Source: Leptospiraceae bacterium (lineage in GTDB: Bacteria > Spirochaetota > Leptospiria > Leptospirales > Leptospiraceae). From it: a stretch of 47,224 nucleotides of DNA. The translations under genes were made by a program, and so were the position numbers. Below are positions 8,216 through 8,599 of the stretch, one piece after another. Every line of letters starts with the position of its first letter. Within the stretch, counting starts at the first letter, position 1. Where the stretch lies: the NCBI GenBank assembly GCA_035340035.1, contig DAOQJO010000043.1, positions 1 through 47,224 of the forward strand, read 5' to 3'. Under the pieces are notes generated by a model that saw only the letters and a program-made list of their open reading frames with translations, was not told the DNA's origin and searched no databases.

Positions 8216-8599
8216 ATGAATAAAATTAAGTTAATTTTGTTTATGGGGTTAATCTCTATTAACCTCGCCGCTGCTGATTGGGGAAGTAATTTCATCTCTT
8301 CCCTGTCTTCGGGAGATTGTAAAGGCATAGCAAGCAAAGACAAAAGTTGGTGCACAACTAACGATTGCAAAGGCATTGCTAGTGGAGACAAGAGTTGGTG
8401 TCAGACAAATGATTGTAAAGGAGTTGCATCTAAAGATAAGTCATGGTGTAGTTCTCCTCTTTGCAAAGCATGGGCAAGTAGTGATAAAAGTTGGTGCAAT
8501 GATTCTGATTGCAAAGGAGTTGCTTCTAAAGATAAATCTTGGTGTAGCTCTGCACAGTGTAAAGCAATTGCAAGTGGTGATAAAAGTTGGTGCAATTAA
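8216..8599 (+). CDS. Secreted cysteine-rich repeat peptide (signal peptide + 6 x 16-aa D-C-K-G-[IV]-A-S-x-D-K-S-W-C repeats)
   Basis: Signal peptide MNKIKLILFMGLISINLAAA, then six tandem repeats each holding two Cys and an invariant DKSWC. RBS AAAGGAGA. Starts 38 nt after the MVP stop. Confidence 0.7.
   Translation: MNKIKLILFMGLISINLAAADWGSNFISSLSSGDCKGIASKDKSWCTTNDCKGIASGDKSWCQTNDCKGVASKDKSWCSSPLCKAWASSDKSWCNDSDCKGVASKDKSWCSSAQCKAIASGDKSWCN
8315..8596 (+). repeat. Tandem 48-nt coding repeat (5 full + 1 short copy) encoding the Cys-rich peptide
   Basis: gattgtaaaggcatagcaagcaaagacaaaagttggtgcacaactaac repeats with many synonymous differences while the peptide motif is preserved. The opposite-strand ORFs 8194-8391 and 8401-8595 are artefacts of this repeat. 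Confidence 0.8.

Follow-up and report, generated by a model that had tools for sequence, protein, structure and literature searches.

On balance, we lean towards reading the small six-repeat protein encoded at 8216..8599 (+) as an exported, disulfide-closed solenoid that serves as an extracytoplasmic binding or scaffold module and does not work with the MASE1 kinase encoded beside it. The window analysed here, to which all positions refer, is a 47,224-nucleotide stretch of DNA from a Leptospiraceae bacterium. Evidence for this reading comes from the conservation of the repeat array, the predicted fold and the comparison of gene neighbourhoods.

The gene and its repeat array

The repeat ORF is a genuine gene with a strong ribosome-binding site. 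It is complete, running from an ATG start to a TAA end over 127 codons plus stop (8216..8599, +), and a Shine-Dalgarno-like AAGGAG (8203..8208, +), read from the sequence, lies 7 nt 5' of the ATG. Upstream, a gene for an 832-residue MVP-like/SPFH protein (5679..8177, +; Pfam MVP_shoulder at 2.7e-24, plus Vault_3 and Band_7) ends 38 nt before the repeat ORF. Downstream stands a MASE1-PAS-HisKA-HATPase_c-REC hybrid histidine kinase (8651..11080, +; Pfam) with seven hydrophobic segments. The distance from the repeat stop to the kinase start, put at 25-50 nt by the sequence-only reading, is 24 nt from TTG 8624 or 51 nt from ATG 8651, just outside either end of that range. A scan of 5400..11300 placed no promoter-like or terminator-like site in either gap flanking the repeat ORF; counts of such sites over this interval were no higher than shuffle expectation, and the sole terminator-like site (5885-5908) falls within the MVP gene. 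Rfam gave no match within the window, and a search of the window for a further copy of the repeat returned none. Two antisense ORFs (8194..8391 and 8401..8595, both −) were set aside as repeat artefacts, because selection works on the plus frame.

By inspection, residues 1-20 (MNKIKLILFMGLISINLAAA; 8216..8275, +) form a putative signal peptide composed of MNKIK, the 12-residue hydrophobic core LILFMGLISINL and AAA, with cleavage expected immediately N-terminal to D21-W22. Homologues carry, again by inspection, a comparable signal peptide or a lipobox of the L-x-x-C type (ISAC in P0014 and P0015, VGCA in P0011), and we infer from such sequence features that the window protein is Sec-exported. 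An N-terminal cap follows (residues 21-33, DWGSNFISSLSSG; 8276..8314, +), in which W22 is invariant and the motif W-x3-[FYW]-I-x2-L-S is conserved (alignment A1).

Six 48-nt in-frame units then start at 8315, 8363, 8411, 8459, 8507 and 8555; Tandem Repeats Finder scores the array at 128 for period 48 and 264 for period 96, both with 78% matches. All on the plus strand, they are unit 1 (DCKGIASKDKSWCTTN; 8315..8362; Cys35 and Cys46), modelled by AF2 as a helix and a 3-10 turn; unit 2 (DCKGIASGDKSWCQTN; 8363..8410; Cys51 and Cys62), unit 3 (DCKGVASKDKSWCSSP; 8411..8458; Cys67 and Cys78) and unit 5 (DCKGVASKDKSWCSSA; 8507..8554; Cys99 and Cys110), each defined by sequence and AF2; unit 4 (LCKAWASSDKSWCNDS; 8459..8506; Cys83 and Cys94), defined by sequence, alignment and AF2; and unit 6 (QCKAIASGDKSWCN; 8555..8596; Cys115 and Cys126), defined by sequence and alignment. 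Every unit has two cysteines spaced C-x10-C and an exact DKSWC, as the sequence-only reading had described. Its consensus DCKG[IV]AS.DKSWC fits units 1, 2, 3 and 5 but not unit 4 (LCKAWAS) or unit 6 (QCKAIAS), and of the two repeat strings that it gave as examples, the first is exact at 8315 and the second is one base off units 3 and 5. L82 and W86 of unit 4 are invariant in a 17-sequence alignment, and the linkers between units vary (TTN, QTN, SSP, NDS and SSA).

The suggestion that the units arose by old duplication under purifying selection is borne out by saturated synonymous sites and by units that are conserved by position across homologues. That the differences between units are mainly synonymous is true per site, where a saturated pS of 0.70 stands against a pN of 0.26 (ratio 0.38, or 0.30 for the 13-codon core), but not of the raw codon differences, with 72 synonymous and 69 non-synonymous. 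Compared with the nearest orthologue, at locus L011, the repeat domain is 95% identical, with pS 0.71 (saturated) and pN 0.04. Compared with a Kofleriaceae protein (L010), and hence between Spirochaetota and Myxococcota, it is 86% identical, with a GC content of 39% vs 66% in the gene and 35% vs 72% in the host. The LCK[AG]W of unit 4, the QCKAI of unit 6 and the DCKGV of units 3 and 5 are found at matching positions in homologues from both Myxococcota and Leptospiraceae, and the six units are kept position by position across ~50 genomes. As these unit-specific features recur at fixed positions, the six-unit array is therefore older than the family.

Predicted fold and superfamily

From a 24-sequence alignment, AF2 models the window protein at pLDDT 96.8 and pTM 0.87, a confident fold prediction for the repeat domain. 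Helices are predicted at model residues 12-20, 29-36, 45-51, 61-68, 77-84 and 93-100, with a 3-residue helix after each, and the cap has a pLDDT of ~90 over the first ten model residues. The paralogue P0014, modelled in a separate AF2 run from a different 7-sequence alignment, has the same helix pattern, with a pLDDT of 94-97 in the repeat domain, 90 in the last ten residues and low values over the N-terminal 65 residues.

Cysteine spacing across 150 superfamily proteins is highly regular within units, where 690 gaps measure 10 residues and only 7 measure 9 or 11, and looser between them, where the gap is 4 (543 cases), 5 (18), 6 (22) or 7 (4). The cysteine count is even in 126 of the 150, and the repeat domain is bounded by cysteine at both ends for four to seven units. 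A fixed C-x10-C combined with variable inter-unit spacing is better fitted by closed loops than by inter-unit metal sites, and the probable disulfides of the window protein lie within units: C35-C46, C51-C62, C67-C78, C83-C94, C99-C110 and C115-C126.

A word-indexed search recovered 27 homologues of the window protein, and a profile search anchored on it recovered 199 clusters at E <= 1e-3, with the matches P0050, P0128 and P0149 discarded as spurious, eukaryote-like low-complexity repeats. In the wider superfamily of ~190 clusters the repeats form a C-terminal module of secreted proteins and lipoproteins. We define it by at least four tandem [DNLQ]-C-[KR]-[GA]-[IVLW]-x7-C units, joined by linkers that are 4 residues long or, rarely, 3 or 5 to 7, and a C-terminus usually 1 to 3 residues past the last Cys. 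With six such units, the window protein stops one residue past Cys126; 74 of the ~144 members with at least three units likewise end one residue after their own last Cys. Members take the form of stand-alone secreted proteins, of modules connected to a lipoprotein anchor through a disordered linker, or of the C-terminus of larger exported proteins. Fusions of the last kind, onto unrelated exported proteins, are seen in P0057, P0031, P0088, P0090, P0097 and P0121; the partners gave two matches only, one to WG_beta_rep in P0057 and one below threshold to SecDF_P1_head in P0031, and neither is informative. Members of the repeat family were found in Leptospiraceae and Myxococcota, one carrier being the cultured strain Minicystis rosea DSM 24000 (L046).

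This superfamily is uncurated and matches no known family or PDB entry. For the window protein, the best Pfam scores were 17.0 bits for DUF3551, whose cut-off is 26.5, and 14.2 bits for IBR, whose cut-off is 24.3; NCBIfam returned nothing under E 0.4, PADLOC returned nothing, and PHROGs gave one 19.5-bit match with no qualifying stretch. Ten other superfamily members had no match in Pfam. A profile search of PDB sequences found nothing better than a spurious Cys-rich receptor at E 0.079, and Foldseek with the predicted fold reached E 3.8 in the PDB and E 5.4 in BFVD. A literature search for this repeat found nothing. The search for a DKSWC repeat family that had been proposed at the outset recovered uncurated homologues, and no characterised family in Pfam, NCBIfam, PHROGs or PADLOC.

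Gene neighbourhoods and the adjacent kinase

We compared neighbourhoods in eight encoding contigs and 49 genome loci, using tblastn with queries from the window (the MVP-like protein, the kinase and genes of the flanks), and clustered the neighbouring ORFs of 57 loci all against all. Among these 57 no family of neighbouring ORFs occurs in more than seven loci and none is fixed in position; synteny among repeat loci is local and confined to close relatives. A radical-SAM gene at L004 and L005 is of the UPF0004/MiaB type and is confined to those loci. A histidine-kinase core was detected by tblastn in the flanks of only L011, L020 and L026, the query being a single kinase core by which divergent Myxococcota kinases may be missed. 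L011 alone shares the MVP-like upstream gene, and both there and in the window the MVP-like gene, the repeat gene and a hybrid kinase gene follow one another on one strand. In L011 that kinase carries four PAS domains and lacks both MASE1 and any hydrophobic segment. Between L011 and the window the repeat domain is 95% identical and the MVP gene 90%, whereas the kinase core reaches only 54%. At L020 and L026 the kinase is of the dCache type, and a nitroreductase gene stands between it and the repeat gene. Three types of sensor are therefore represented at the kinase loci, namely MASE1 (window), soluble 4xPAS (L011) and dCache (L020, L026). Other close Leptospiraceae orthologues adjoin restriction enzymes, a deaminase, a hydrolase, a methyltransferase or a nitroreductase.

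The sequence-only reading had suggested that the repeat protein may be a cognate extracellular signal or ligand-binding scaffold, given the MASE1-PAS hybrid kinase beside it. In the form weighed here, the protein would serve that kinase as an extracellular or periplasmic signal or would present a ligand to it, its 12 cysteines reporting, for example, the redox state of the periplasm. In its favour, the two genes share a strand, lie 51 nt apart and are not separated by any terminator-like site, a hybrid kinase directly follows the gene in L011 and lies ~1-2 kb away in L020 and L026, and the signal of the MASE1 domain is given as unknown in a review (PMC8846402), which leaves room for a protein ligand. 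However, neither the kinase nor any other neighbour is conserved across the 57 loci. The L011 kinase is not an orthologue of the window kinase and, being soluble and cytoplasmic, would therefore have no contact with the exported protein, and the dCache kinase of L020 and L026 is set apart by the nitroreductase gene. By a rough estimate, two independent adjacencies in ~8 Leptospiraceae lineages are about what kinase density would lead one to expect, and the Kofleriaceae protein, despite its 86% identity, is found at loci with no kinase link. The earlier proposal had itself named a family unlinked to kinases elsewhere as the observation that would tell against it; this is what the 57 loci reveal, the family itself being uncharacterised. 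We consequently regard the partnership as quite improbable, and the adjacency looks like a local accident, although co-transcription and some lineage-specific signalling link may exist in the window and L011. Arginine sensing by STM1987 through a periplasmic binding protein was considered as a MASE1 precedent and rejected, the STM1987 domain being dCache. For annotation more generally, the lesson is that the adjacency of a small ORF and a kinase needs comparative evidence before the two are called a signalling pair.

Possible roles of the repeat protein

An envelope fibre, sheath or lattice, into which the charged ladder of the protein would pack homotypically, would explain its conservation by self-contact. 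A small exported protein that is 86% identical across phyla, a repeat that implies regular D/K ladders and the rigid solenoid shape of the AF2 models are all consistent with such self-assembly. We nevertheless hold it unlikely: fusion to the C-terminus of heterogeneous lipoproteins better fits a binding module than a polymer subunit, and the polar ladder is not conserved in a wider five-unit subfamily. Ranking below this, though above the kinase partnership, is thiolate metal binding or storage, modelled on periplasmic copper-storage or metallophore proteins, in which 12 reduced cysteines would hold Cu(I), Zn or another soft metal between units. The alignment does show 12 invariant cysteines in 107 residues, each adjoining a conserved Asp, and at several Myxococcota loci an adjoining gene encodes a protein with the Cu-binding_MopE motif. 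Myxobacterial genomes commonly contain MopE-type motifs, and PF11617 was matched only in neighbour genes of some Myxococcota loci; the window protein itself gave no match to this MopE-type copper-binding family at E <= 1, nor any other Pfam metal-binding match. It also lacks CxxC, CC and His/Met motifs, its export would be into an oxidising compartment, its constant C-x10-C with variable inter-unit gaps favours closed loops, and metal-resistance genes and maturases are not conserved nearby in the 57 loci.

Least credible of all, and in our view highly improbable, is a polyprotein precursor whose six units would be cleaved into ~16-residue disulfide-cyclised peptides of a pheromone, RiPP-like or antimicrobial kind. 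Near-identical tandem units after a signal peptide do superficially resemble multi-core precursors, and the mature product would be small, cationic and Cys-rich. Yet the variable linkers have no conserved cleavage site, unit-specific identities are kept across phyla, which would be needless for equivalent released peptides, AF2 predicts one compact domain (pTM 0.87), many relatives are tethered as lipoproteins or fused to large proteins, and the 57 loci show no conserved protease, maturase or transporter near the gene. Tests of the window protein for membership of the Sel1-like/Hcp, RiPP precursor, MopE-type and, judged by conserved genetic linkage, kinase-cassette groups placed it in none of them, for RiPP precursors because there is no conserved neighbour, the linkers are variable and radical-SAM is present only at L004 and L005.

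As a binding or scaffold module, the preferred reading, the protein would be Sec-exported (~11.4 kDa; mature form ~107 aa, pI ~8.3) and, once its signal peptide is removed, would adopt, in the oxidising periplasm, the fold of a short and rigid solenoid made up of the 13-residue Trp-containing cap and then six 16-residue units. Each unit would comprise an 8-residue alpha helix (xDCKG[IV]AS) and a 3-10 turn (KSW), with its own two cysteines disulfide-bonded. The most likely role would be that of a stable extracytoplasmic binding or scaffold module, in which the near-invariant K/R, S/T, D, K/R, S/T ladder may recognise a non-evolving, probably periodic ligand of the envelope or environment. The case for such a role is one of analogy and conservation. 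Conversely, the conserved residues could be largely structural (helix caps D1 and D9, packing residue G4, core residues I5, A6 and W12), and extreme conservation therefore need not imply a binding surface.

Several known systems offer partial parallels. HcpA/B/C, COA7 and other Sel1-like proteins, which are exported or compartmentalised, form all-helical solenoids from tandem repeats that are each braced by a disulfide of their own. The window protein resembles Helicobacter HcpA/B/C and COA7 in its predicted helical solenoid with one disulfide per repeat; however, its repeat has 16 residues, in contrast to the ~36-residue helix-turn-helix of Sel1-like proteins, and Sel1 gave neither a Pfam match at E <= 1 nor a structural match. 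The Azotobacter vinelandii LRV protein forms a solenoid of alternating alpha and 3-10 helices from short tandem repeats, and an alpha/3-10 solenoid is likewise predicted here. In the Tenebrio molitor AFP, 12-residue coils with a Cys ladder present a regular polar surface that binds a periodic non-protein ligand. Very short units, a regular Cys ladder and a regular polar surface are shared with such insect antifreeze proteins, although these are beta-solenoids whereas the window protein is predicted to be all-helical, and there is no sequence similarity. Choline-binding/CW_binding repeats form a C-terminal solenoid that acts as a generic binding module on diverse exported proteins, and are based on beta-hairpins without disulfides; the present module is also C-terminal on exported proteins, but the window protein has no homology to these repeats (Pfam) and is predicted to be helical with disulfides. 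DUF3551 (PF12071), the only sub-threshold Pfam match to compare (E 0.0066, 17.0 bits, residues 42-70), is likewise a small Cys-containing bacterial family of unknown function; its match lies below the 26.5-bit gathering cut-off, spans less than two units and is no evidence of membership.

More tentatively, the repeat may found a new structural class in which each 16-residue turn of an alpha/3-10 solenoid is closed by a single disulfide, a design with no counterpart in solved structures. Its whole surface, in a domain 86% identical between Spirochaetota and Myxococcota although synonymous sites are fully saturated and GC matches the host, would have been frozen by an invariant, periodic non-protein ligand of the cell envelope or environment; as part of the same doubtful but possible reading, the module would have passed between Leptospiraceae and Myxococcota and found further use at the C-terminus of many lipoproteins as a domain for targeting or anchoring. 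Should the predicted fold prove true, ~190 sequence clusters would share an unrecognised domain for which curated databases hold no description, a helical solenoid whose repeat is unusually short and whose every turn contains one disulfide. Here, a small exported protein has housekeeping-level conservation while being limited to two unrelated lineages with complex envelopes, the Leptospiraceae and Myxococcota, and such conservation with so narrow a distribution is usually the sign of an important interaction. The repeat domain is also a potential compact and highly stable scaffold for protein engineering.

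The repeat gene and the age of its array

An open reading frame of 127 codons, with an ATG start and a TAA stop, occupies 8216..8599 on the plus strand of the window and is preceded by AAGGAG at 8203-8208, 7 nt 5' of its start. Its product begins with MNKIKLILFMGLISINLAAA, continues with DWGSNFISSLSSG and ends in six units of 16 residues: DCKGIASKDKSWCTTN (unit 1, starting at nt 8315), DCKGIASGDKSWCQTN (unit 2, nt 8363), DCKGVASKDKSWCSSP (unit 3, nt 8411), LCKAWASSDKSWCNDS (unit 4, nt 8459), DCKGVASKDKSWCSSA (unit 5, nt 8507) and QCKAIASGDKSWCN (unit 6, nt 8555). All six carry DKSWC without variation and two cysteines spaced C-x10-C, as the sequence-only reading had described. 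The consensus it gave matches four units exactly but not the other two, and the second DNA string that it quoted differs by one base from unit 3 and from unit 5. Tandem Repeats Finder returned periods of 48 and 96 nt for the array, with 78% matches for each; neither further repeat copies nor Rfam matches were found in the window. Two antisense ORFs of 64-65 aa (8194..8391 and 8401..8595, both on the minus strand) cross the array and are probably by-products of the repeat codon pattern; similar ORFs are also seen in homologous loci.

The array had been attributed to old duplication under purifying selection, an interpretation that proved correct and is strengthened here by the positional conservation of unit-specific residues and by saturated pS against low pN. 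Raw codon differences among the units are about equal, at 72 synonymous versus 69 non-synonymous; counted per site, the synonymous positions have reached saturation and the non-synonymous ones have not (Nei-Gojobori pS 0.70, pN 0.26, ratio 0.38; 0.30 for the 13-codon core). Across homologues, the number of units (six), their order and their individual residues are kept, with LCK[AG]W marking unit 4, DCKGV units 3 and 5, and QCKAI unit 6, which ends C-[PN]-stop. When the window protein is compared unit by unit with eight Myxococcota homologues, identity is highest at orthologous positions, which indicates that the duplications are older than the family.

Comparison between genomes extends this picture. 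Against the closest orthologue, in the Leptospiraceae MAG locus L011, the repeat domain shows 95% protein identity, with pS 0.71 and pN 0.04. Against the Kofleriaceae locus L010 (6094..6372, aligned with window 8318..8596), protein identity is still 86%, at a gene GC of 39% versus 66% and a locus GC of 35% versus 72%. Gene GC is near that of the host in both cases, so any transfer between the two phyla must be old. The high identity to L010, together with the intermixing of the phyla in the tree described below, suggests either that the gene was exchanged horizontally long ago or that its clock is exceptionally slow. In all, the repeat ORF is a very strongly constrained gene, and its array is ancient.

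Distribution of the family and its use as a module

No family for the repeat protein was found in Pfam, NCBIfam, PADLOC or PHROGs, its sole sub-threshold Pfam match being to DUF3551 (17 bits, where the cut-off is 26.5), and no description of the repeat was found in the literature. Among 5.8 billion proteins, a word-indexed search recovered 27 homologues, in none of which a curated domain covers the repeats; where a source names them, they are called "hypothetical protein". The one precomputed Pfam match among them, PF11722 on P0011, probably lies outside the repeats. Scanning one genome per GTDB species yielded 49 loci, some in plainly mislabelled bins, nearly all of which belong to Leptospiraceae or other Spirochaetota MAGs or to Myxococcota (Kofleriaceae, Polyangia, Myxococcaceae); Minicystis rosea DSM 24000 alone is an isolate. 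A tree of the 93-residue domain built by neighbour joining, which has few sites and is indicative only, intermixes spirochaete and myxobacterial sequences within the window's subfamily and also contains a Leptospiraceae-only clade of lipoprotein paralogues and a Polyangia-only clade. Two copies occur in single MAGs (L011 with L033 in JANYCR01; L035 with L036 in CAWIUL01). In Leptospiraceae with two copies, a short, secreted, window-like form is accompanied by a longer lipoprotein form with an S/G-rich tether.

When 1.84 billion cluster representatives were searched exhaustively with a profile, a wider superfamily emerged, of 199 clusters at an E of 1e-3 or less, 127 of which reach 1e-10 or less; a few of the 199 (P0050, P0128 and P0149) are spurious, eukaryote-like low-complexity repeats. 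Genuine members carry mainly five or six D-C-[KR]-[AG]-[IV]-x7-C units, preceded by what looks like a signal peptide or lipobox, and an N-terminal export signal is probably family-wide. Diverse exported proteins carry the domain, either on a tether or as a C-terminal module. Its position is typically C-terminal, and it ends long, unrelated exported proteins such as P0057 (with WG beta-repeats), P0031, P0088, P0090, P0093, P0097, P0121 and P0151; in P0028 and P0030, the module comes first and is followed by an unassigned extension. The window's subfamily has a polar ladder (K3, S7, D9, K10, S11) that is not conserved in the five-unit subfamily and is hence not required for the fold alone. We regard the existence of the gene and its family as very likely.

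Predicted fold and disulfide pattern

AlphaFold2 modelled residues 21-127 of the window protein from a 24-sequence alignment with a mean pLDDT of 96.8 and a pTM of 0.87. Each predicted unit opens with an alpha helix of 8 residues (xDCKGIAS); two residues of coil separate it from a 3-10 helix of 3 residues (KSW), after which come three more coil residues, the second cysteine among them. An independent run on the Leptospiraceae paralogue P0014, from a different 7-sequence alignment, reproduced this pattern, with pLDDT of 94-97 in the repeat domain and 90 in the last ten residues. Its first 65 residues (a lipobox signal peptide and an S/G-rich stretch) score low, as would be expected of a flexible tether. 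A rigid fold of the repeat domain is predicted with good confidence. Foldseek found no counterpart in the PDB (best E 3.8) or in BFVD (best E 5.4), and the top match of a PDB sequence profile search (E 0.079) was spurious.

The pairing of the cysteines was approached through their spacing in a set of 150 superfamily proteins, with no motif assumed beforehand. Odd-numbered gaps between successive cysteines (first, third, fifth and so on) are 10 residues long 690 times and 9 or 11 residues long only 7 times, the alternate gaps span 4 (543 cases), 5 (18), 6 (22) or 7 (4), and the cysteine count is even in 126 proteins. The domain always starts at the first cysteine of a unit and usually ends one residue past the last, at anything from four to seven units; inter-unit pairing would strand the first and last cysteines in every variant. 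This regularity argues for one disulfide within each unit, and the window protein probably contains C35-C46, C51-C62, C67-C78, C83-C94, C99-C110 and C115-C126.

Disulfide-braced tandem-repeat solenoids and C-terminal repeat binding modules are represented by the Helicobacter Hcp/Sel1-like proteins, the LRV alpha/3-10 superhelix, insect antifreeze coils and choline-binding repeats. The window protein would resemble the Hcp/Sel1-like proteins as a disulfide-braced tandem-repeat solenoid, LRV in its type of solenoid and the antifreeze coils as a tandem-repeat solenoid, and the superfamily recalls choline-binding repeats as a C-terminal binding module. Membership in any of these groups is ruled out by repeat length, secondary structure, and profile and fold searches.

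Genomic neighbours and possible function

Downstream of the repeat ORF lies a MASE1-PAS-HisKA-HATPase_c-REC hybrid kinase gene (8651..11080; domains from Pfam, seven hydrophobic segments), for which the repeat peptide had been proposed as a partner. Directly upstream is a gene for an 832-aa major-vault-protein-like/SPFH protein (5679..8177, plus strand; MVP_shoulder 2.7e-24, Vault_3 3.7e-8, Band_7/SPFH 4.7e-6), a bacterial protein homologous to the major vault protein of eukaryotes and without matches in PADLOC or PHROGs. Upstream of this, at 517..5153 (plus strand), is a chemotaxis cluster of CheW, CheA and CheB with an extra 415-aa HATPase_c protein, whose gene is syntenic in L011 at 74% identity. 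Further downstream, the opposite strand carries metabolic genes and mnmE(trmE)-jag-yidC (13521..17531, minus strand), a cluster usually located close to the origin of chromosomal replication, which may mean that the window is itself near the origin. Neither intergenic gap flanking the repeat ORF contained a promoter-like or terminator-like site, and co-transcription with its neighbours is thus possible.

Locus comparisons do not support the proposed partnership, as linkage to the kinase is not a property of the family. In tblastn searches, the MVP-like protein and flanking genes matched L011 only, and the kinase core only L011, L020 and L026. All-against-all clustering of ORFs within 5 kb at 57 loci found no neighbour family in more than seven loci or at a constant position. 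In the gene tables of eight metagenomic or genomic contigs, the neighbours are unrelated, among them the pairs HAD hydrolase and TP0873_N protein, beta-helix/MopE protein and fatty-acid desaturase, URO-D and AhpC, and prepilin peptidase and ABC transporter. Among the close orthologues from Leptospiraceae, L018, L019, L024 and L025 adjoin a TdeIII restriction enzyme, deaminase, Uma2, NHL-repeat protein, hydrolase or methyltransferase. The L011 locus matches the window at 90% identity in the MVP-like gene and 95% in the repeat domain, against only 54% in the kinase core; the gene 3' of the repeat ORF there (6391..9141, plus strand) encodes a soluble hybrid kinase of 4xPAS type that lacks hydrophobic segments, differs from the window kinase and cannot touch an exported protein. 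Between these close relatives, a kinase gene has evidently been swapped at this position. In L020 and L026, a dCache kinase is encoded downstream of the repeat gene, at a distance of about 1.1 kb and 1.8 kb, respectively, and past a nitroreductase gene; by a rough estimate, two independent kinase adjacencies among some eight Leptospiraceae lineages are close to the chance expectation from kinase density. A review counts MASE1 among the sensory domains that lack a known signal (PMC8846402), and hence it offers no precedent either. A lineage-specific role as kinase co-sensor is improbable. Large Cys-rich proteins with the Cu-binding_MopE motif adjoin the repeat gene in several Myxococcota loci (L004 6931..9933; L005 70..690; L007 10388..12055; L027 and L057, about 400 nt downstream on the minus strand). 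This motif is common in myxobacteria, and the adjacency may be coincidence.

The repeat protein would be an oxidatively folded, protease-resistant alpha/3-10 solenoid, which in the periplasm or on the cell surface would serve as a module for binding or scaffolding. No dedicated partner gene was found for the family; this, with a polar surface nearly invariant across phyla, favours a non-protein ligand. We tentatively favour a ligand that is itself invariant and possibly periodic, such as an envelope glycan or lipid. The same ladder of polar residues could be read as serving self-assembly, which we consider unlikely, and the regular cysteines as serving thiolate metal binding, which is slightly less likely again beside the intra-unit disulfides proposed here. 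That the array is a polyprotein precursor yielding cyclic peptides is the least likely reading, for units whose individual residues are kept across phyla.

The claims on architecture (gene, family, fold and disulfides) are much firmer than that on function. Taken together, our findings show the repeat protein to be an unannotated, highly conserved repeat domain that is probably exported and structurally novel. Its interest is moderate, and lies in a new domain or fold and the puzzle of its conservation rather than in a signalling system.
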